Source of the DNA: an uncultured delta proteobacterium
GTDB lineage: Bacteria > Myxococcota_A > Polyangia > Fen-1088
Direction of reading: 5' to 3'
Length of the DNA: 64,000 bases
Assembly (NCBI GenBank): GCA_963767925.1
Contig: CAVYGB010000008.1
Span: forward strand, 3,104,001-3,168,000
Made by a program: the position numbers and the translations under genes. Under the pieces are notes generated by a model that searched no databases, was not told where the DNA came from, and saw nothing but the letters and a program-made list of their open reading frames with translations. Shown here in pieces: positions 1,346-13,308 of the stretch (position 1 is its first letter; every line of letters starts with the position of its first letter).

Positions 1346-3862
1346 TCAGAGGTCGTTGCCAATGTTGAACTGGAAGTCGTAGCTGCGCTCGCCGTACTGA
1401 TACAGCGGCTTGAAGGGGAAGCCCCACTCGAAGCGGAGCGGCCCGATCGGCGAGAACCAGCGGAACCCGAAGCCCCAGCTCGTGCGCAGGCTGCTGAGGT
1501 CTTCCCAGGGCCGCACGCAGGGGTCGAAGGAGACGTGGGGATCGGCCGGCCGGAGCTGGCAATATTGATCCTCGAGGTTGTAGGCGTTGCCCGCGTCGGT
1601 GAAGAGCACCGCCCGGATGCCGACCCGCTCGATGAGGGGGAACTCGATCTCCGCCCGCCCGATGAGCTGCAAGTTGCCGCCGATCTGGTTGACCTCGAGG
1701 ATCGAGTCGGGGACCTGCTCGGCCGGGGCGCGGATGCGGGGCCCCAGGCTGTAGGGCGGGAAGCCCCGGACGTCGTAGCTGCCGCCCAGGAAGTAGCGCT
1801 CGAAGATCGGCACGCCCTGCGGGTCGCGGGAGGTGATGAGCCCGACCTGGGCCCGCAGGCGCAGGACGAAGGGACCCCACAGGGGGTAAAAGTAGCGGGT
1901 GGTGGCGTCGTAGCGGTTGTAGGTGGTCTGCGAGCCGAAGATCCGCTCGGCGAACTCGGCGGCGGCGTCGTTGTACCAGCCGCTGGTCGGGAAGAGGCGG
2001 TTGTCCCGCGAGTCGAAGGCCAGCGACAGCCGGAACGACGAGCTGAGCCCGGGGCGGAGCAGGTTGGCCAGGGTCCCCGGGGGGAAGGGGGTGCGCTGCC
2101 CACCGGCCAGGAACCCGGTGCGGGTGCTGGTGGAGACCCCCACGTCCTCGAGCTGGTAGCGCAGGTAAAGGTGGAGGTTGTCGACCAGCATGTAGCCCCA
2201 GGTGAGGCTGCCGCCCTTCGAGGTGCGGTTGAAGGACGGGTAATACTGGAACTGGTTGTAGAGGTTGAAGCCGAAGGTCCAGTTGGTATCGAGGAAATAG
2301 GGCTCGTCGAAGGAGAGCAGGAAGATCTGCCGGATGCCCGACAACATGGCCTGCAGCGACAGGGCCTGGCCCCGGCCGAACAGGTTGTTCTGGGAGATCT
2401 GGGCCTGGAAGATGAAGTTCTCCGCCGAGGAGAAGCCGGCCCCGATCTGGAAGGCGCCGGTCTGGCGCTCGGTGACCTCGACGTTCACCTCCATCTTGTC
2501 GTCGCTGTCGCCCCGCTTCTCCGAGACGTCGACCCGCTCGAAGAAGCCCAGGGCGTTGACCCGGCGCTTGGACAGCTCGAGGCGCGTGCTGTTGTAGGGC
2601 TCGCCCTCGACCACCCGCATCTCCCGGCGGATGACCTTGTCCCGGGTGCGGGTGTTGCCGCGGATGTTGATGCGGTCGAAGCTGACCTCGCTGCCCCGCT
2701 GGATCTCGAAGGTGACGTCCACCAGGCGCTTGGTCTCGTCGACCGCGGTCTGGGGGATGATGTTGACGTAGGCGAAGCCCTTGTCCTTGTACTGCTCGGT
2801 CAGCTCCTGGATGTCCTGGCCCAGCTTGGAGCGGCTGAAGGTGTCGCCGCCCTTGGCCCGCAGGCGCTCCCGGATCCGGGCTTCGTCCTCGAGCAGCTCG
2901 CCCTTGAACTCGATCTTCCCCAGCGTGTAGGCGGCCCCCTCCTCGATGGGGATGGTGATGTAGAGCGAGCGCTTGTCGGGCGACAGCTCGAAGCGGGGGT
3001 CGTGGATCTTGACGTATATGTAGCCCCGGTCCTGGTAGTAGGACTGCAGCAGCAACATGTCGCGCTGAAAGACGTCCTCCCGGTAGGTGCCGGCCGAGGT
3101 GACGAACGACAGCAGGTCGGTCTCCTGGGTCAACATCACCGAGCGCAGGTCGCGGTCGGAGGCGGCCTTGTTCCCCACGAAGTTGACCCGCCGGACCTCC
3201 ACCTTGGCGTTCTCCCGGACCCGGAAGGTGACGTCGACCTCGGAGGCGCCGATGCGCTTGAGCTCGTGGGTGACGTCGGCCATGTAGAAGCCGCGCTGCA
3301 AGTACAGCTCGCGGATCTTCTCCATGTTCTTCTTGATCTTGGCGAGGTCGAGGATCTGCTCCTTCTTGATGTCGAGGACCTCGTTGATCTTCGTGAGCCC
3401 GACCTCATCGTGGCCCGAGACGTAGATCTTCCGGATCGACGGCTTCTCCTTGAGCACGAAGACGACGACCACCCCGCCCGGCTCGCTGTTGGCCTCGACC
3501 TGCACGTCCTCGAAGAACCCCATGCGCCAGATGGCGCGCACGTCCTCGCGCAGCAGGTCCTGGGTCAGCGAGGCGCCCGGCACCGTGCGCAGGTTGACCC
3601 GCAGGGCATCGTCCTCGACCTTGCGGTTGCCCCGGAAGGCGATCCGCTTGACCTCCAGGGAGAGGACGTCGGCCGGGACCTGGGGGTCACCGGGGGCGGC
3701 TCCGGGGGCCGGTCCCGCGTCGCCGCCGGCGTCGGGGGGCGCGCCCGCGTCGGGGGTAGCCTGGGCCTGGGCGCGCGCGGGCCACAGCGCCAGCACGAGC
3801 AGCAGCACCGGGAGGGGCCGGGAGGAGCGAACGAGGGTCAGGGGTCCTGGCACTGGAGGCAT
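1346..3862 (-). CDS. bamA: Outer membrane protein assembly factor BamA
   Basis: Signal peptide, POTRA repeats (GNRKV, GNTRTRDKVIRRE), VRGF motif, and C-terminal GFGFRWFSPIGPLRFEWG...FQFNIG. Confidence 0.96.
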   Translation of the reverse strand: MPPVPGPLTLVRSSRPLPVLLLVLALWPARAQAQATPDAGAPPDAGGDAGPAPGAAPGDPQVPADVLSLEVKRIAFRGNRKVEDDALRVNLRTVPGASLTQDLLREDVRAIWRMGFFEDVQVEANSEPGGVVVVFVLKEKPSIRKIYVSGHDEVGLTKINEVLDIKKEQILDLAKIKKNMEKIRELYLQRGFYMADVTHELKRIGASEVDVTFRVRENAKVEVRRVNFVGNKAASDRDLRSVMLTQETDLLSFVTSAGTYREDVFQRDMLLLQSYYQDRGYIYVKIHDPRFELSPDKRSLYITIPIEEGAAYTLGKIEFKGELLEDEARIRERLRAKGGDTFSRSKLGQDIQELTEQYKDKGFAYVNIIPQTAVDETKRLVDVTFEIQRGSEVSFDRINIRGNTRTRDKVIRREMRVVEGEPYNSTRLELSKRRVNALGFFERVDVSEKRGDSDDKMEVNVEVTERQTGAFQIGAGFSSAENFIFQAQISQNNLFGRGQALSLQAMLSGIRQIFLLSFDEPYFLDTNWTFGFNLYNQFQYYPSFNRTSKGGSLTWGYMLVDNLHLYLRYQLEDVGVSTSTRTGFLAGGQRTPFPPGTLANLLRPGLSSSFRLSLAFDSRDNRLFPTSGWYNDAAAEFAERIFGSQTTYNRYDATTRYFYPLWGPFVLRLRAQVGLITSRDPQGVPIFERYFLGGSYDVRGFPPYSLGPRIRAPAEQVPDSILEVNQIGGNLQLIGRAEIEFPLIERVGIRAVLFTDAGNAYNLEDQYCQLRPADPHVSFDPCVRPWEDLSSLRTSWGFGFRWFSPIGPLRFEWGFPFKPLYQYGERSYDFQFNIGNDL

Positions 3863-3927
3863 CGTCAACGCTTTTTCAGCTTAAGTCCTTCAGCGAACGC
3901 CTCTCGCGAACGCCTGCAGCGAAGCCC

Positions 3928-4674
3928 TCAGCGATCCTCCCCGATCAGGCCGTCGACCATGCGCACCCGCCGCATCGTCTGGGCGGCGAGCTCGTCGTTG
4001 TGGGTCACCAGGAGGACGGTCATGCCCAGCTCGCGGTTGAGCTCGAAGAATAACTCGTGCATCTCCCGGCTGGTCTTCGTATCGAGGTTGCCGGTGGGCT
4101 CGTCCCCCAGGAGGAGGCGGGGGGCCAGCAAGAGGGCCCGGGCCAGGGCCACCCGCTGCTGCTCGCCGCCCGACAGCTCGCCCGGCCGGTGGTGCAGCCG
4201 CTCCTTCAAGCCGACCCGCACCAGCAGGGCCTCCGCCCGGCCGCTGCAGTCCCGGCGGGCCAGGCGGTTGATGAGGCCTGGCATCATGACGTTCTCGAGG
4301 GCGGTGAACTCGGGGAGCAGGTGGTGGAACTGGAACACGAATCCGATGTTCCGGTTGCGAAAATCGGCCAGCCGGTTGGGGCTGAGGCTGGTCACGTCCC
4401 CGCCGTCGAACATGACCCGCCCGGCGCTGGGGGCGTCAAGGGTCCCGACGATGTGCAGGAGGGTCGACTTGCCGACCCCCGAAGCCCCCACCACCGCCAC
4501 CACCTCCCCGGGCCGGAGCTCGAGGTTGATCCCCTTCAAGACGCCGAGGGTGCGCCCGCCGTGCTCGAAGACCTTGGTCACGCCCTCGACCTGCAGATGA
4601 ACGCCTCCCGGGGCCATCGCCGCAGCGGCGGAAGGCGCGGTAGAATCGGCGAGCGGGCTCATCGGGTCTGGCAC
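3928..4674 (-). CDS. lolD: LolD-type ABC ATPase (lipoprotein release)
   Basis: GASGVGKST Walker [28 protein letters not shown] and DEPTGNLD; upstream of bamA. Start may be ATG 4662. Confidence 0.85.
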
Positions 4675-5686: not shown

Positions 5687-5769
5687 GTCAGATGGCGCCC
5701 CCCCTCTCCCCCGCTGGCCCCTCGGCCCCCCTTTCGGTCCCCCCACCCGTCGCCGGGGGGAGGCCGGGC

Positions 5770-6732
5770 GTGAGCGACGACCGGCTGTTCGACCTGGTCT
5801 CCGCCGACATGCAGAAGGTGGAGGCGCTGCTCCGCGAGCGCATGCACAGCGCGATCGGCACCATCCCCGACGTGGGCGCCCACCTGCTGCTGGCCGGGGG
5901 CAAGCGGCTGCGCCCGCTGATCGCCGCCCTGGCCGGGCGGGCCACCGGCGCCGACCCCGCCCTGGCGCTGGCGGTCGGCTGCGCGGCCGAGCTCATCCAC
6001 ACCGCCACCCTGTACCACGACGACGTGGTCGACGACGGCCGCGTGCGCCGGGGCCGGCCCGCCGCCCGCATGGTGTTCGGCAACGGCATCGTCGTGCTGG
6101 TGGGCGACTTCTGTCTGGCGCGCGCGCTCGAGACGGTGGCCCTGACCGGGTCGCTGCCGCTCGTGCAGTCGCTCGCCGCCACCGTGACCGAGATGGCCGA
6201 GGGCGAGGTGGCCCAGCTCGAGCGGGCGGGCAACGCCGAGGTCACGACCGCCGAATACTTCGACGTCATCGATCGCAAGACCGCCTCCCTCATCGCCTGG
6301 TGCGCCCGGGTGGGCGGGGCCGCTCCACCACCGGCCGACGCCGCCCTGGCCCGCTTCGGCCGGGCGGTGGGGCGAGCCTTCCAGATCGCCGACGACATCC
6401 TCGACTGCGCGGGGGCCGAGTCGGTCACCGGCAAGTCGGTGGGCCACGATCTGAAGGAAGGCAAGCTGACCCTGCCGGTGCTGCTGGCCTGCGAGATCGA
6501 CCCCGGCGTGCGGGCCCGGCTGCGACGGGAGCTCGGCGAGGGCGGCCTCTCGGACGCCTCCACCCGGGAGCTCCTCGAGCTGGTCCGGCGGGTGGGCGGC
6601 GTCGATCGAGCGCGGGCCCGGGCCCACAGCATCGCCGCCGAGGCCATCGCCGAGCTGCAGGTGCTGCCCGAGTCGCGGCACCGCGAGGGGCTGGCCGATC
6701 TGGCCCGCCTCTCGGTGGAGCGGGTCTCCTGA
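5770..6732 (+). CDS. Polyprenyl diphosphate synthase (IspB/HepT family)
   Basis: GGKRLRP, DDVVD, KTA, FQIADDILD and GKLTLP motifs. GTG start after a GGGAGG RBS; alternative start ATG 5692. Confidence 0.92.
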   Translation: MSDDRLFDLVSADMQKVEALLRERMHSAIGTIPDVGAHLLLAGGKRLRPLIAALAGRATGADPALALAVGCAAELIHTATLYHDDVVDDGRVRRGRPAARMVFGNGIVVLVGDFCLARALETVALTGSLPLVQSLAATVTEMAEGEVAQLERAGNAEVTTAEYFDVIDRKTASLIAWCARVGGAAPPPADAALARFGRAVGRAFQIADDILDCAGAESVTGKSVGHDLKEGKLTLPVLLACEIDPGVRARLRRELGEGGLSDASTRELLELVRRVGGVDRARARAHSIAAEAIAELQVLPESRHREGLADLARLSVERVS

Positions 6733-7427
6733 TGGGCGCCGGGACCGACGTCCGCGGCATGTTCGACCGGATCGCCGGCCGCTACGACGCCGCCAACCGG
6801 GTGATGTCGGCGGGCATCGACGTGATCTGGCGGCGGCGGGCCATGGCCGCCCTGCTGGCCGACCTGCCCGCCGGGGCGCGGGTGCTCGACCTCGGCGCGG
6901 GCACTCTGGACGGCGCGCTGGAGATCGTCCGGCGGCGGCCGGACCTGCAGGTTGTCGGCGCCGACTTCGCCCGTCAGATGCTGGCGGTGGGCCGGCGCAA
7001 GCTGGCCGGCCACCCTCCCGGACGCATCGTGGCCCACGCCGCCGACGGGCACCACCTCCCCTACGTGGCGGGCGCCTTCTCCGCGGCCTTCTCCGGCTTC
7101 TGCGTGCGCAACCTGGCCGATCTGCCGGTGGCCCTGGCAGAGCTGCGGCGGGTGGTGCAGCCGGGAGGTCCGGTCGTCATCCTCGAGTTCTTCCGGCCGC
7201 TGCGGACCCGCTTGTTCTTCGACCGGCTGTACAACGCCCACGTCTTGCCCCTGCTGGGCTGGGCGGTCACCGGCGACCGCGAGGCCTACCGCTACCTGCC
7301 CCGCTCGATCGAAGCCTTCCGCTCGCGGGTCGAGTTCGAGGAGGCCCTCCGCCAGGCCGGCTTTCCCCAGGTGCAGGGGCAGGACCTGTTTCCCGGCGGG
7401 GTGGCCTCGCTGGTGGTGGCCCGATGA
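6732..7427 (+). CDS. menG: Demethylmenaquinone methyltransferase UbiE/MenG
   Basis: MFDRIAGRYDAANRVMSAGID..WRR, VLDLGAGT, ILEF and AYRYLPRSI; ATG overlaps the upstream TGA. Confidence 0.9.
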   Translation: MGAGTDVRGMFDRIAGRYDAANRVMSAGIDVIWRRRAMAALLADLPAGARVLDLGAGTLDGALEIVRRRPDLQVVGADFARQMLAVGRRKLAGHPPGRIVAHAADGHHLPYVAGAFSAAFSGFCVRNLADLPVALAELRRVVQPGGPVVILEFFRPLRTRLFFDRLYNAHVLPLLGWAVTGDREAYRYLPRSIEAFRSRVEFEEALRQAGFPQVQGQDLFPGGVASLVVAR

Positions 7428-7990
7428 AGCTTGTCGTGGCGGTCGGCGGCGCCTCGGGCTCGGTCTACGCCAAGCGCCTGCTCGACGCGCTGGCCGCCCG
7501 CCCCGCCAGCGCCGAGCTGGAGGTCGGCCTGTGTTTCTCCCGCTCGGGCGAGGAGGTCTGGCGCCACGAGATCGGGCAGCCGGCCCAGTACCCCTTTCGC
7601 CGCTACCCCCTCGACGACTTCCGGGCGCCCTTCGCCTCGGGCTCGGCCGGCTGGGACGCCATGGTGGTCATCCCCTGCTCGACCGGGGGCCTGGCCCGCA
7701 TCGCCCACGGGGTGTCCGACGACCTCATCGGCCGGGCCGCCGACGTCATGCTGAAGGAGCGGCGCCGGCTGGTGCTGGTGGTGCGCGAGACGCCGCTGTC
7801 GCTGATTCATCTCGAGAACATGCTGGCCGTCACCCGGGCCGGCGCGGTGGTGCTGCCGGCCTCGCCCTCCTTCTATTCCAACCCCACCACCCTGGAGGCG
7901 CTGCTCGACACGGTTGTCGGCCGGGTCTTCGATCAGCTCGGGATCGCCAACCAGCTCATGCCCCGCTGGGGAGAAGGACGCCCGTCATGA
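7424..7990 (+). CDS. ubiX: Flavin prenyltransferase UbiX
   Basis: GGASGS, APFASGS, PCS, RAADVMLKERRRLVLVVRETPL and PSFYSNP. Confidence 0.93.
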   Translation: MKLVVAVGGASGSVYAKRLLDALAARPASAELEVGLCFSRSGEEVWRHEIGQPAQYPFRRYPLDDFRAPFASGSAGWDAMVVIPCSTGGLARIAHGVSDDLIGRAADVMLKERRRLVLVVRETPLSLIHLENMLAVTRAGAVVLPASPSFYSNPTTLEALLDTVVGRVFDQLGIANQLMPRWGEGRPS

Positions 7991-8700
7991 TGCAGGCCCA
8001 GCCCCCCGGCGAGGCCGGTCGGCCCGACCCCGCCTCCGACCTGTTCGTCCTGGGCCGTCGGGCCGCCGCCGCCGCCCGGGCCGCCAGCGGCGGGCGGGGG
8101 GTCTTCTCGCGCTGCCGGCAGCTCCTGGCCACCGGCGCCTGGAAGGGCCCCCGCGACGCCGCCCTGGCCTACGTCGAGGAGGAGGACGCCGCCGCCCTCG
8201 GCGGACTGCCCGCCGTGCTGGAAGCGGGGGCCCGCCTGTACCTCGCGCGCACCCCGGGGGCCGCTCAGGAAGCGGCGGCCGCCGGGCTCACCGTCTCTTA
8301 CCGCCTGACCTACCGTGGCGGCGAGCGCGAGCCGGCCCGCCGCCAGCAGCGGGCCGCGCTGGCCGGTCTCGCGCTGGCGGGCGTGATCCCTACCCCCCAG
8401 GGGGAGCCGGGGGGCCTCGATACCCTGCGCCTGATGGCGCTCTGCCGCCTCGAGCTGCCCGAGCAGACCCGGGTTGTCGCCGACTTCGACCGCCTTGGGC
8501 ACCGGCTGGCCCAGATGAGCCTGGGGTTCGGGGCCGACGAGCTGTTCGGCCCCATACTGCCGGAGCGGGCCCTGCGCCTCGGGGCCAACGCCCACAGCAC
8601 CGTCATGACCCGCAAGGAGGCGGCCACCCTCCTGCGCGGCGCGGGGCTCTCGCCCTGCGAACGCCTCTCCGATGGCCGCCTCGAGGAGGTGCCCGAATGA
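7987..8700 (+). CDS. Degenerate CofH/MqnC/MqnE-family protein lacking the radical-SAM CxxxCxxC motif (237 aa)
   Basis: Overlaps ubiX and mqnE through ATGA junctions. Colinear by eye with the adjacent MqnE at both ends (e.g. LGHRLAQMSLGFGADELFG vs LGVKTAQTALWFGADDLDG); no CxxxCxxC. Confidence 0.75.
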   Translation: MMQAQPPGEAGRPDPASDLFVLGRRAAAAARAASGGRGVFSRCRQLLATGAWKGPRDAALAYVEEEDAAALGGLPAVLEAGARLYLARTPGAAQEAAAAGLTVSYRLTYRGGEREPARRQQRAALAGLALAGVIPTPQGEPGGLDTLRLMALCRLELPEQTRVVADFDRLGHRLAQMSLGFGADELFGPILPERALRLGANAHSTVMTRKEAATLLRGAGLSPCERLSDGRLEEVPE

Positions 8701-9846
8701 GCCAGCTCGGCGCAATCCGCAACAAGGTCGAGGCCGGCGAGCCCCTGTCGTTCGAGGACGGGGTGGCGCTGTTCCGCCACCCCAACGTCATGGAGGTGGG
8801 CTCCCTGGCCAACCGCGTGCGCGAGCGGCTGCACGGCGACCGCACCTACTTCAATCGCAACTTCCACATCAACGCGACGAACGTCTGCGTGGCGAGCTGC
8901 CGCTTCTGCTCGTTCGCCCGGCTCAAGGAGGGGGACCAGGGGGCCTACACCATGCCCCTCGAGGAGGCCTGGGGGAAGCTGCAGTCCCGGGTGGACGCCG
9001 GCGAGCCGGTGACCGAGATCCACATCGTCAACGGCCTGCACGACGGGCTGCCCTTCGAGTACTACACCGATCTCCTGCGCCGGGCTGAAGCGCATCAAGC
9101 CCAGCATCCACCTCAAGGCCTTCACGGCGGTGGAGATCTTCTATTACCACCAGCGCTACGGCCTCAGCGTGGCCGAGGTGCTGTCCCGGCTGCGCGCGGC
9201 GGGGCTGGACTCCATCCCCGGTGGCGGCGCCGAGATCTTCGCCCCCCGGGTGCGCAAGAAGATCTGCGACGACAAGTGCACCGGCGACGAGTGGCTGGAC
9301 GTGCACCGCACCGCCCACCGCATGGGCCTGCGCTCGAACGCCACCATGCTCTACGGCACCATCGAGACGGTGGAGGAGCGGGTCGACCACATGTTGCGGC
9401 TGCGCGCGCTGCAGGAGGAGACCGGGGGCTTCCAGACCTTCATCCCCCTGGCCTTCCACCCCGACAACAACGCCCTCATGAAGCTGCCGGCCCCCACCGG
9501 CATCGAGGACCTCCGCACCTACGCGGTGGCCCGCCTGCTCCTGCACAACATCCCCCACCTCAAGGCCTACTGGATCATGCTGGGGGTCAAGACCGCCCAG
9601 ACCGCGCTCTGGTTCGGGGCCGACGACCTCGACGGCACCGTCCAGGAAGAGCGCATCTACCACATGGCCGGGGCCGAGACCCCCCAGACGCTGAGCCCCG
9701 ACGAGATCGTGCGCATCATCGTCAACGCCGGGCGGGTCCCGGTCGAGCGCGACACCCTGTACAACGTCATCGCCGAGGGCGACGCCCTGGTCTCCCGCAA
9801 GCCCTTCCGGCGCGCCGTCCACCGCTCCCTGGAGGTGCTGCCGTGA
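8697..9846 (+). CDS. mqnE: Aminofutalosine synthase MqnE (radical SAM), with one extra base near 9080
   Basis: HINATNVCVASCRFCSF, IHIVNG, SIPGGGAEIF, HLKAYW and GTVQEERIYHMAG. Removing one C at 9080-9081 gives a continuous 382-aa protein (..LLRGLKRIKPSIHLKAFTAVEI..). Confidence 0.88.
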
Positions 9847-11851
9847 GCGCCCGCAAGCTCCGCCTGGCGGCGGTCTCCTTCCTCAACGCTCGCCCCATCA
9901 CCTACGGCCTCGAGCGCGACGCCGACGGCGACATCGACCTGCGCTTCGACATCCCCTCGGCCTGCGCCGAGGCCCTGGCCCGCCGGGAGGTCGACCTGGC
10001 CCTGTTGCCGCTGGCCAGCTACGCGACCTTCCCCGGCCCCTGCGGGTGATCCCGGGCGTCGCGGTCGCCAGCCGGGGCCCCGTGCGCACGGTCCTGCTCG
10101 TGGGCGAGGTCCCCTGGGCCGAGATGGAGAGCATCGCCCTCGACTCGGCCTCCCGCAGCTCGGCCATGTTGCTGCGGGTGCTCACCCGGGAAACGGGGCT
10201 GGACCCCCGCTTCGCGGAGAGCGACCACGAGGGCATCGTCGAGGCGGCCTCCGGCACCCGGGGCGCCCTCATCATCGGCGACGCTGGCTTCCGGGCCGCC
10301 GATCTCTACCCATACGTCTACGACCTGGGAGCGGAGTGGGCCGCCCTGACCGGCCTGCCCTTCGTCTACGCGGTCTGGGCCGGCCACCCCGAAGCCGCCA
10401 CCCCCGCCGACGTCGCCCGCCTGCGCGACAGCCAGCGCCGGGGGCTCGAGCACCGGGCCGAGATCGCCCGGGCCTTCGCTGCCGAGCGGGGACTGCCCGC
10501 CTCGGTCTGCGAGAGCTACCTCAGCCACAACATCCGCTACCAGCTCGGGGCCGAGGAGCTGTCGGGCGCGGGCGCCTTCCTGGCCCGGGCCAGCGCCCTC
10601 GGCGCCGTGCCCCCGGGCACCCGCATCCGCTTCTTCGAGGACGGGCGCCCCGAGCGGCCCATCACCAACGCCCGCAAGGCCGCCCCCCTGCCCCTGCCCG
10701 CGGCCACCCCGGCGGGCGGGTCCCCCCGCCGCAGCCTCGACAGCCTGCTGGCCGACGCCGCCGCCGGCCAGCGCCTCGCCTTCGAGGACGGCCTGCGCCT
10801 GTACAGCGAAGCCGACCTGCTCGACCTCGGCGCGGCGGCCGATCGCCGCCGCCAGAGCCTGCACCCCGACGGCACCGTCACCTACATCATCGATCGCAAC
10901 GTCAACTACACAAACGTCTGCGTCACTCGCTGCAAGTTCTGCAACTTCTACCGCCCGCCCGGCCACAAGGAGGGCTACACCCTGGACCGGGAGGTGCTCG
11001 GCCAGAAGCTGCAGGAGACGGTCGACCTGGGGGGCGTGCAGATCCTGCTGCAGGGCGGGCTCAACCCCGACCTGCCCCTGGCCTACTACGAGGATCTGTT
11101 CCGCTGGATGAAGGCCAGCTTCCCCCTGGCCATCCACGGCCTGTCGCCCGAGGAGATCCGCTACATCGCCGAGATCGAGGAGCTGCCCCTGCGCACCGTG
11201 ATCGAGCGGCTGGTGGCGGCGGGGCTCGACTCGATCCCCGGGGGCGGCGCCGAGATCCTCGACGACGACGTCCGCCGCCACATCTCCCCCCTCAAGTGCT
11301 CGACCGAGACCTGGCTCGAGGTGATGCGCCAGGGACACGCCCTGGGCCTGCGCACCACCGCCACCCTCGTGTTCGGCTTCGGCGAGACGCCCGAGCAGCT
11401 CTTCGGGCACCTCGAGCACCTGCGCGCCCTGCAGGACGAGACCGCCGGCTTCACCGCCTTCATCTGCTGGCCCTTCCAGGCCGAGGGGACCCGCCTCAAG
11501 CTGCGCGACGACACGACCGCCCTGCGCTACCTGCGGGTGTTCGCCGCCGCCCGCCTGTACCTCGACAACTTCCCCAGCCTGCAGGTCTCCTGGCCCACCA
11601 TGGGCCCGGAGGTCGGGCAGGTGGCCCTGCGCTTCGGGGGCAACGACTTCGGGTCGGCCATGATCGAGGAGAACGTCGTCTCCCAGGCCGGCGCGGTGTT
11701 CAAGCTGTCGGCCCAGGACATCGAGCGCTACGTGCGGGAGGCGGGCTTTGTCCCCCGCCGCCGCAACATGCGCTACGAGCTGTTGCCCCTGCCTCCCGCC
11801 GCCCGGAGCGCCCCGGCGCCCTTTGCCGCCGGCCTCGGCGTGGATCGCTGA
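9843..11851 (+). CDS. mqnA-mqnC: MqnA (chorismate dehydratase)-MqnC (cyclic dehypoxanthine futalosine synthase) fusion, one base missing near 10037-10040
   Basis: N-terminal AVSFLNARP, SRSS, LIIGD and YDLGAEW..TGLPFVYAVW (MqnA). C-terminal TYIIDRNVNYTNVCVTRCKFCNF, ILLQGG and GSAMIEENVVSQAG (MqnC). Adding one C to the C4 run joins GTG 9843 to the long ORF (669 aa). Confidence 0.85.
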
Positions 11852-11855
11852 CCCC

Positions 11856-12749
11856 ATGGCCAGGCCCCTCGCCACCGTCGCAGGCGCCGTCACCGACGCC
11901 GTCGCCACCTTCGGGCGCATGGTGAAGTTCAGCCACACCCTCTTCGCCCTGCCCTTCGCCCTGGCCGCCGCCGCCATCGCCGCCCGCGATCACGGCCTGA
12001 GCGCTGGCCGCCTGCTGGCCATCGTGCTGGCCATGGTCGGCGCCCGCACCGCCGCCATGGGCTTCAACCGCATCGTCGATCGGGACCTCGACGCCCTCAA
12101 CCCCCGCACCGCCGGGCGCGAGCTGCCGAGCGGGCGCGTCTCGCTGGCGGCGGCCTGGACCTTGACCCTGGCCAGCACGGCGCTGTTCGTGGGGGCTGCC
12201 GCCTGGCTGGGCCCCCTCTGCCTGGCCCTGTCGCCGGTGGCCCTGGCCCTGCTGTTCGGCTATTCGTACACAAAGCGCTTCACCTGGCTGTGCCACCTGT
12301 TCCTGGGGCTGGCCATCGCCGCCGGCCCGGGCGGGGCCTGGATCGCCGTGGCGGGGAGCGTGTCGGCGCCCGCCCTCTGGCTGATGGCCGCGGTGGCCAC
12401 CTGGATCGGCGGCTTCGACATCCTCTACGCGCTCGCCGACCGCGACTTCGATCTGGCCCACGGGCTCCGGTCGATCCCCGCCCGCTTCGGCGTGCGCGGG
12501 GCGCTGATCCTGTCGGCTGGCCTGCATGCGCTGACCGTTGTGGCCCTCTGTGGCCTGGCCCGGGCCGCCCACCTCGGTCCGGTCTACTGGCTGGGCATCA
12601 CCGTTATCACCGCCATCCTGCTCTGGGAGCACGCCGTGGTCCGCCCCTCGGATCTCAGCCGCCTCGACATGGCCTTCTTCACGCTCAACGGGTATGTCTC
12701 GGTGGCCTTCCTTGTCGCCACCGGCCTCGATCTGATCTGGAAAATCTGA
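11856..12749 (+). CDS. mqnP: UbiA-family prenyltransferase of the futalosine pathway (MqnP type)
   Basis: VKFSHTLFALPFA, ARTAAMGFNRIVDRDLDALNPRT..RELP, YSYTKRFT, FDILYA and AFFTLNG. Confidence 0.88.
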   Translation: MARPLATVAGAVTDAVATFGRMVKFSHTLFALPFALAAAAIAARDHGLSAGRLLAIVLAMVGARTAAMGFNRIVDRDLDALNPRTAGRELPSGRVSLAAAWTLTLASTALFVGAAAWLGPLCLALSPVALALLFGYSYTKRFTWLCHLFLGLAIAAGPGGAWIAVAGSVSAPALWLMAAVATWIGGFDILYALADRDFDLAHGLRSIPARFGVRGALILSAGLHALTVVALCGLARAAHLGPVYWLGITVITAILLWEHAVVRPSDLSRLDMAFFTLNGYVSVAFLVATGLDLIWKI

Positions 12750-12804: not shown

Positions 12805-12878
12805 GCGCCTGTAGCTCAACTGGATAGAGCATCGGCCTTCGAAGCCGAGGGCTGGGGGTTCGATTCCCTCCGGGCGCG
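12805..12878 (+). tRNA. tRNA-Arg (anticodon UCG)
   Basis: Acceptor stem GCGCCTG/CGGGCGC, D arm GCTC..GAGC, anticodon arm TCGGC-CTTCGAA-GCCGA, T loop TTCGATT. CCA not encoded. Confidence 0.92.
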
Positions 12879-12910
12879 CGACGCGAGCACGACGACGAAA
12901 ACTGAAAACC

Positions 12911-12983
12911 GGGCGCATAGCTCAACTGGTAGAGCAGTGGACTCTTAATCCATTGGTTGTAAGTTCGATTCTTACTGCGCCCA
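12911..12983 (+). tRNA. tRNA-Lys (anticodon CUU)
   Basis: Acceptor stem GGGCGCA/TGCGCCC, anticodon arm GTGGA-CTCTTAA-TCCAT, T arm GTAAG-TTCGATT-CTTAC. Confidence 0.93.
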
Positions 12984-13308
12984 CACCAGCTCGCTTCTCC
13001 GTGGAAGGCCGTGAGGGCCCCGCCGCCTGAACCAGGCGGCAGGAGGCCTCGGCCGACCCGGGCGGGCCGTGGTCCCCTCCCCCGGAGCGGCTGATTCGTG
13101 GGCTGGCCGCACCAAGCGGCGGGTCCCGTCCGATACCGGGGTGCATGCATAGACGCAGTGCCCTCGGAAAAACGCTGTCCCCTGGCGAGATGAATCTTCG
13201 GATCTGTCTGCCAGCCGGGGCTGGTCGGTCCAGTTGCTCGCCTCCGAGCCCCCTTTTTCGCGGCGCGCACCCGTAGCATTCTTCTTCGGGAAGAGGGATT
13301 GCTGCCAG

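Follow-up and report, generated by a model that had tools for sequence, protein, structure and literature searches.

The futalosine pathway of menaquinone synthesis is described with two radical S-adenosylmethionine (SAM) enzymes, MqnE and MqnC. Here we analyse a third member of their family, encoded in a futalosine (mqn) operon on a 64,000-nucleotide stretch from an uncultured delta proteobacterium (assembly GCA_963767925.1, contig CAVYGB010000008.1, positions 3,104,001 to 3,168,000; this whole stretch is called the window, and positions refer to it unless stated otherwise). The gene lies at 7987..8700 on the forward strand, immediately upstream of mqnE (aminofutalosine synthase), and its product, P0001, lacks the cluster motif of radical-SAM enzymes; we refer to it as the paralog.

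The closest described relative of the paralog, in sequence and in fold, is MqnE itself (TIGR03700; PDB 6XI9/6XIG, from Pedobacter heparinus), the product of the adjacent gene of the same operon. The paralog runs collinear with MqnE in its N-terminal helix and over its final ~140 residues, but it is about 145 amino acids shorter and lacks CxxxCxxC, the GGGAE SAM motif and a Radical_SAM Pfam match. With the CofH/MqnC C-terminal region (PF19288) and the family model TIGR00423 it has in common the C-terminal barrel strands and the FGAD motif; however, in known members of that family the PF19288 region always follows a radical-SAM core, and the paralog falls below the curated cut-offs.

Catalytically dead paralogs paired with an active enzyme are known in the trypanosomatid prozymes of AdoMetDC and deoxyhypusine synthase, and in eukaryotic Dph1-Dph2. 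The logic that we propose here is the same, in that a duplicate loses catalysis, retains its dimer surface and becomes a subunit of its active paralog; however, those systems have unrelated folds and organisms, Dph2 still binds a cluster, and the binding of MqnE by the paralog is a prediction. ThiH, a radical-SAM tyrosine lyase, is found in complex with the TIM-barrel partner ThiG, and likewise joins a full-barrel enzyme of the same structural group to a cluster-less barrel protein, although ThiG is an unrelated, catalytically active barrel and not a degenerate ThiH paralog. To our knowledge, no other radical-SAM enzyme has a paralog without a cluster as its dedicated subunit. What would be new at this locus, if the modelled complex is right, is a pseudoenzyme paralog that pairs with its own enzyme within the radical-SAM barrel class. 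No name or description of a cluster-less MqnE paralog was found in the literature, represented mostly by abstracts (PMC13386864 included).

An MqnE-like barrel without the radical-SAM centre

The gene runs from ATG 7987 to TGA 8700 (237 codons, 237 amino acids) and is nested, in the same frame, in a longer mechanical open reading frame (ORF; 6952..8700) that crosses ubiX in the wrong frame. The sequence-only reading of this DNA had described it as hidden inside a spurious ORF and tied to both neighbours by ATGA overlaps, and both points are confirmed in the sequence: the ATGA at 7987-7990 is common to the ubiX stop and the paralog start, and that at 8697-8700 to the paralog stop and the mqnE start. 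The GC content by codon position (0.83/0.58/0.93) follows a coding pattern similar to that of the neighbouring genes. The gene and its parts are the following.

7987..8700, + strand: gene of the cluster-less MqnE-like protein (P0001), with MqnE 6XI9 as best fold match
7987..8034, + strand: variable N-terminal leader, residues 1-16, unalignable and of varying length in the family; predicted local distance difference test (pLDDT) 64-73, conservation 0.13-0.49 past Met1
8035..8124, + strand: N-terminal helix and first strand, residues 17-46 (DLFxLGRxA...F.R.R), counterpart of the MqnE segment before the CxxxCxxC loop
8134..8160, + strand: subfamily-specific loop GAW(K/R)GPRDA, residues 50-58, at the site of the MqnE cluster-binding loop; conservation 0.64-0.98
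8254..8670, + strand: region homologous to MqnE 200-353, residues 90-228, including the near-invariant LG.RLAQ..LGFGAD.L.GP and ER.L motifs
8685..8689, + strand: GGAGG, a Shine-Dalgarno-like candidate site for mqnE within the last codons of the paralog, 7 nt before ATG 8697

The AlphaFold2 model of the paralog, built from 86 sequences (pLDDT 93.6, predicted TM-score 0.88), is an alpha/beta barrel of about seven strands rather than eight, with an N-terminal helix (19-34) followed by strands (37-46), and with a C-terminal hairpin. In accordance with the structural kinship to the CofH/MqnE family that had been anticipated, the top PDB match in Foldseek was MqnE (6XIG/6XI9, Pedobacter heparinus; E 5e-9, TMq 0.70). 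VIA-align placed residues 9..237 of the model on residues 14..379 of 6xi9_A (Z 17.9, root-mean-square deviation 3.7 A, 217 residues aligned), and the next matches were PylB (Z 15.6), BioB (15.2), HydE (15.1) and ThiH (13.4). The paralog superposes on the MqnE-like barrel over most of its length, N-terminal helix and C-terminal strands included, and since the alignment spans residues 9..237, the whole protein, N-terminus too, is arranged like MqnE.

What the paralog lacks is the catalytic centre. Where MqnE has about 135 residues (65-199), with the cluster loop and the PGGGAEI-bearing strands that bind SAM, the paralog has about 37; at 237 amino acids, compared with 382 in the intact MqnE of a same-genus genome, it is shorter by the ~145 residues first estimated. 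The absence of CxxxCxxC and PGGGAEI, first noticed in this one protein, extends to its family: neither CxxxCxxC nor GGG[AS]E occurred in any of 86 (alignment A3) or any of 54 (A6) paralog-family members, while all 23 neighbouring MqnE proteins had both. The Radical_SAM model PF04055 had no match in the paralog at E<=1. Family members carry between 0 and 7 cysteines (median 2), and the two partly conserved ones of P0001 have conservation scores of only 0.78 and 0.55. Having lost both the CxxxCxxC motif and the GGGAE segment, the paralog cannot perform radical-SAM chemistry.

The relationship is also evident in sequence, most clearly in the C-terminal part, where the paralog shared 33% identity over 86 amino acids with the C-terminal half of the MqnE of the window (BLASTP, E 2e-10). 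The MqnE model TIGR03700 matched it with E 3.5e-9 (36 bits, compared with a cut-off of 434.55), at model positions 257-344 of 351 only, and the NCBIfam MqnC model with E 2.2e-7. Pfam CofH_C (PF19288) matched residues 145-227 with E 2.2e-4 and 21.5 bits, below its gathering score of 27 bits, and TIGR00423 (CofH family) gave 26.1 bits against a curated cut-off of 260.25. With hhalign, using 25 paralog orthologs (A1) and 23 neighbouring MqnE proteins (A2), paralog residues 90-228 aligned to MqnE 200-353 (probability 98.6%, E 7.7e-16). The C-terminal alignment made by eye in the sequence-only reading, over ~90 amino acids, is therefore upheld and extended. The N-terminal one fared less well: pairwise BLASTP gave no significant match between the N-terminus of the paralog and MqnE, and a second, collinear hhalign match of paralog 17-52 to MqnE 29-64 was weak (E 0.004-0.017, probability 3-9%), yet this part is spanned by the structural alignment.

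The paralog family is, by sequence, closer to MqnE than to MqnC (hhalign score 108.5, compared with 70.0 and E 1.8e-9 for the MqnC domain), and BLASTP of the paralog against the MqnA-MqnC fusion of the window returned no match under E 0.15. In the aligned region, residues invariant in MqnE are often replaced (KAYW by VADF, DLDGT by ELFGP), and the FGAD motif, common to MqnE and MqnC, is kept in all paralog subfamilies. PF19288 matches exactly three genes in this genome, the paralog among them. Profile searches of family members found no dedicated Pfam or NCBIfam model, and among 15 members of the divergent subfamilies, 11 had no Pfam match at E<=0.01 and four had CofH_C alone. All homologs bearing a source name are called "hypothetical protein". 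The family is nameless, and in GC-rich genomes its genes are easily masked by longer spurious ORFs.

Other short proteins with CofH_C and no radical-SAM core exist beyond the paralog family. One of them, P0188 (216 amino acids), exceeds the CofH_C cut-off with 29.9 bits; another group is an ESM Atlas cluster of 276-residue proteins (102 members, CofH_C on 77%, commonest in Acidobacteriota). These proteins may be independent reductions of the same kind, or gene fragments.

Conservation and selection next to mqnE

Among 41 genomes searched, the paralog was found in all 24 of the family of the window and in one genome of another family, and each of those 24 genomes had an MqnE cross-match 1.0-1.5 kb downstream on the same strand. 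A large protein database yielded 364 homologs at E<=1e-3, several of them from records named "Polyangia bacterium"; we use Polyangia as the class name following the names given by sources to homologs. A profile search of 1.84 billion representatives returned 1006 proteins at E<=1e-3, of which 146 reached E<=1e-10 and 20 reached E<=1e-30. Across 401 sampled genomes of the phylum, full-length matches were restricted to the class of the window (G000 and four of four genomes of family f11). Seven more genomes of the class (six of family f7, one of f16) had a second, shorter match ~1.0-1.6 kb upstream of mqnE, whereas outside the class 40 genomes matched at E<=1e-10, each of them only once, the match being MqnE itself.

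The shorter proteins belong to further subfamilies. Divergent forms of ~200 amino acids occupy the same site in three other families of the class; the named sources of the ~200-residue subfamily are Nannocystis pusilla, a Nannocystaceae bacterium and a Myxococcota bacterium, and its model (pLDDT 90.2) again had MqnE as best structural match (Z 14.0, 183 aligned). All six of the f7/f16 genomes whose loci were retrieved carry a third subfamily, of ~192-201 amino acids and without CxxxCxxC, in the context ubiX-ORF-mqnE-mqnA/C. The core common to the subfamilies consists of the N-terminal helix, a GL..L(R/W)..A..R stretch, LG..LAQ..LGFGA..L.GP, and then (E/D/K)R.L. Within the family of the window the length ranges from 172 to 292 amino acids, and members of 172-198 amino acids lack the middle part. 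The GAW(K/R)GPRDA loop is absent from these short members and from the ~200-residue subfamilies.

The gene order ubiX-paralog-mqnE was constant across the loci of 19 relatives. An overlap of 4 nt joined the ubiX stop to the paralog start in 16 of 19 loci; in the remaining three the genes overlapped by 8 nt, overlapped by 1 nt, or lay 4 nt apart. The paralog stop and the mqnE start were likewise joined by a 4-nt overlap in 18 of the 19, and in five of five further loci; in these counts the start codon nearest the upstream stop was chosen, which favours overlaps. In two genomes ubiX lies ~0.7 kb and ~1.6 kb away from the paralog, which nevertheless still abuts mqnE, so that the invariant link is the one with mqnE.

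The ratio of non-synonymous to synonymous substitution rates (dN/dS) was estimated by the NG86 method throughout, which understates dS at the 93-98% GC of third codon positions found here and thus inflates the values. Over ten pairs, it was 0.19-0.47 for the whole paralog, 0.12-0.62 for residues 17-89, 0.26-0.71 for residues 90-139 and 0.09-0.22 for the C-terminal core (140-228); for mqnE it was 0.12-0.18 (seven pairs). Some alignment columns were invariant in all 86 paralog sequences.

These data bear on the possibility that the paralog is an mqnE duplicate in decay, without function, whose reading frame has stayed open by chance in DNA of very high GC content. Long spurious ORFs are indeed abundant in GC-rich genomes, as in this window; non-synonymous evolution is about three times faster in the paralog than in MqnE, and the N-terminal half varies in length (proteins of 172-292 amino acids). 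However, a remnant would not be expected to occupy the same site in every one of the 24 genomes of the family and in three families besides, nor to have a core dN/dS so far below 1, invariant columns, a confidently predicted fold and gene overlaps conserved on both flanks. Given the dN/dS values and the conserved synteny we reject the dying-duplicate reading, to which we leave a very small residual chance. The syntenic orthologs and the purifying selection that the sequence-only reading had named as checks were both found, and we regard it as nearly certain that the paralog is a genuine, selected, cluster-less barrel, derived from MqnE and fixed beside mqnE across a class. If so, it would be a clear case of a radical-SAM barrel pared down to ~200-240 residues, still folded and still selected. 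That a whole bacterial class has fixed a third family member, one without a cluster, in this operon suggests that its menaquinone synthesis has a component not recognised so far.

A predicted partnership with MqnE and its alternatives

The explanation that we favour is that the paralog is a real gene of the futalosine menaquinone operon, whose product is a shrunken alpha/beta barrel descended from an MqnE-like radical-SAM enzyme. Of this ancestor it has kept the helix at the N-terminus, the first strand and the final ~140 residues, whereas the GGGAE segment that binds SAM and the CxxxCxxC loop of the [4Fe-4S] cluster have been lost. The paralog and MqnE, whose genes are seen to overlap, would be made together by translational coupling, and the paralog would bind MqnE side by side through surfaces still common to both. 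Its role would be that of a subunit without catalysis of its own, which keeps aminofutalosine synthase stable, tunes it, or passes on its substrate or product.

The GGAGG at 8685..8689 probably serves mqnE as ribosome-binding site. It encodes the conserved ...LEEV tail of the paralog, a type of tail that recurs in orthologs, and the MqnE tail ...LEV(L/V)x likewise carries a GGAGG ahead of mqnA. Such sites in the tails of both proteins are consistent with translational coupling.

The binding was addressed by structure prediction, as proposed in the sequence-only reading. MqnE and paralog proteins from a same-genus genome were used, because the mqnE of the window is frameshifted (see below), and this was the sole pairing predicted. 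The complex scored ipSAE 0.78/0.73/0.73, with 0.00 for the best of three controls; the partner had a pLDDT of 83 or more, and the runs had 64% or more of their contacts in common. The pass mark applied is reached by 116 of 157 solved complexes and by two of 215 mismatched pairs, figures that are a rough guide only with alignments of our own, as used here. The predicted interface is pseudo-symmetric and made of homologous segments of both chains, namely residues 29-39, 264-272, 296-305 and 340-344 of MqnE and residues 19-27, 111-112, 141-147, 172-180 and 211-220 of P0001, so that the N-terminal segment (17-46) lies partly within it. Conservation in the paralog was higher at interface positions (0.82, n=28) than elsewhere (0.68, n=190; permutation p 0.00075, burial uncontrolled). 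MqnE interface positions also differed more between genomes with and without the paralog (mean Jensen-Shannon divergence 0.34, compared with 0.19 elsewhere; p 0.0045).

Several observations weigh against a partnership with MqnE. PDB entries 6XI9/6XIG hold two chains, and the complex pass may therefore echo an MqnE homodimer, the model recalling an MqnE-MqnE arrangement and showing likeness rather than binding. In the CofH/MqnC/MqnE family as a whole, too, conservation is highest in the segments that form the interface, and it could therefore reflect constraints of the fold rather than binding. The divergence test is confounded by surface exposure and phylogeny, and strict paralog-distinguishing residues of MqnE were not enriched at the interface (1 of 25 interface positions, compared with 8 of 358 overall; Fisher p 0.44). 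The N-terminal half of the paralog evolves fast, and the three subfamilies differ there. Finally, conserved polar loops lie off the interface (GAWRGPRDA, 50-58; ERALRLG.NA, 193-202; TRKEA, 208-212), a hint of a ligand-binding or catalytic site of its own.

This last point leads to the possibility that the paralog is a stand-alone ligand-binding protein or enzyme, whose reduced barrel retains part of the MqnE pocket and forms no stable complex with MqnE. It would carry, protect or modify adenosyl- or benzoate-type intermediates such as aminofutalosine, dehypoxanthine futalosine or carboxyvinyloxybenzoate. The polar loops, with conservation of 0.8-1.0, sit at the barrel end of the MqnE cluster loop and of the post-beta8 loop, the FGAD motif is retained in all subfamilies, and membership in the operon is conserved, all of which would suit such a function. 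However, the GAWRGPRDA loop is missing from the ~200-residue subfamilies and from the 172-198-residue members, so that no one pocket is conserved throughout the family; many MqnE-invariant residues are replaced in the aligned region, and the complex prediction favours binding to MqnE.

The operon holds MqnA, MqnE, MqnC, MqnP, MqnL and a methyltransferase, and a second mqn locus lies 1.6 Mb away (G000:C8:1535643-1537097), with a full-length VitK2_biosynth gene (202.7 bits) that is likely MqnD. This gene is convergent with an adjacent PNP_UDP_1/futalosine-hydrolase-like (MqnB-like) gene, which scores 83.2 bits, below the cut-off of 124.7. We considered the paralog as a stand-in for a missing MqnD or MqnB, and rejected this since candidates for both are present elsewhere in the genome. 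Every known futalosine step thus has a candidate gene and a gap-filling enzyme is not called for, which also counts against the stand-alone function; we hold the latter possible, if distinctly doubtful.

The paralog could instead be a non-catalytic partner of the MqnC half of the MqnA-MqnC fusion or of UbiX/MqnL, or form a homodimer. It is homologous to MqnC as well (the hhalign match given above), most loci have the 4-nt overlap between ubiX and the paralog, and the MqnA-MqnC fusion always comes next in the operon. Nevertheless, the family scores clearly higher with MqnE than with MqnC, the link with ubiX is broken in two genomes where that with mqnE is kept, and MqnE, the sole partner predicted, passed. 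We consider these other partners, and the homodimer, unlikely.

The intact, catalytically dead third paralog postulated by the sequence-only reading is thus borne out as a conserved, selected and motif-less protein, and its role as a scaffold or partner stands as a proposal. On the modelled complex and the conserved adjacency, we see the chances as evenly divided on whether the paralog acts as a non-catalytic partner subunit of MqnE. A more specific version is that aminofutalosine synthase in Polyangia is an obligate heterodimer of MqnE and this cluster-less, half-size paralog, in which the paralog would replace the second MqnE protomer and be needed for activity, stability or substrate hand-over; we put this forward tentatively, with more doubt than confidence. 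The partnership with MqnE is directly testable by co-purification and an MqnE assay.

Neighbouring genes and frameshifts in the assembly

The genes around the paralog, named by Pfam and NCBIfam profile searches except where indicated, are the following.

5692-6732: polyprenyl synthase
~6730-7427: UbiE/MenG-type methyltransferase region, named from position and by eye only
7424..7990, + strand: ubiX/mqnL, flavin prenyltransferase (Pfam Flavoprotein E 4.1e-39; TIGR00421 E 1.6e-57), its stop overlapping the paralog start
8697..9846, + strand: mqnE, aminofutalosine synthase, its start overlapping the paralog stop; frame broken at ~9080 in the assembly
9843..11851, + strand: mqnA-mqnC fusion, with VitK2_biosynth, Radical_SAM and CofH_C domains (TIGR03699, 456.8 bits)
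11748-12749: mqnP, UbiA-type prenyltransferase

Both mqnE and the fusion are interrupted in this assembly. Relative to four of four relatives aligned, mqnE has one extra C within 9075-9085 (~9080), at ...ctgcgCcgggctg..., which splits the gene into an N-terminal part in the frame of 8697 and a C-terminal part in the frame of 9130-9846; both halves match TIGR03700 (E 4e-38 and 2.5e-98), and they are in a single frame in all 24 other loci checked. In mqnA one base is missing at ~10036 (10030-10040) compared with relatives (ttccccg-gcccctg), so that the first ~65 codons (9843-10049) and the rest of the gene (10046-11851) are read in different frames. The two indels lie within 1 kb of each other and had been overlooked in the sequence-only reading; in an alignment of 6.7 kb with the same-genus genome, no other single-base indel is left uncompensated. 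The source genome consists of 13 contigs at 83.8% completeness, and we suspect that the frameshifts are assembly errors rather than signs of pseudogenes. Frame changes were also seen in two other genomes: in G024 (locus L014) ubiX is spread over three frames, and in G022 (locus L026) the short paralog and mqnE both change frame. As these genomes are 70-78% complete, assembly quality is the likely cause.

The fusion of MqnA (chorismate dehydratase) with MqnC, of ~660 amino acids, directly follows mqnE throughout the class (window 9843-11851; loci L021-L025 and L063-L068). The C-terminus of MqnE is ~20-40 residues longer in most paralog-bearing genomes, often ending in ...LEV(L/V)x. MqnE lengths were 366-402 amino acids with the paralog (L002-L025, L035-L037, L063-L068) and, without it (L038-L062), 359-369 amino acids in 23 of 25, the other two being fusions of 838 and 866 amino acids; this length comparison is confounded by clade. 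The longer tail (window 9780-9846) holds the GGAGG of the next gene.

Directly after mqnP there are two tRNA genes, tRNA-Arg(TCG) at 12805-12879 and tRNA-Lys(CTT) at 12911-12984. On the minus strand, judged by eye only, 1346-3868 looks like a BamA/Omp85-type outer-membrane assembly protein and 3928-4674 like a LolD-like ABC ATPase.

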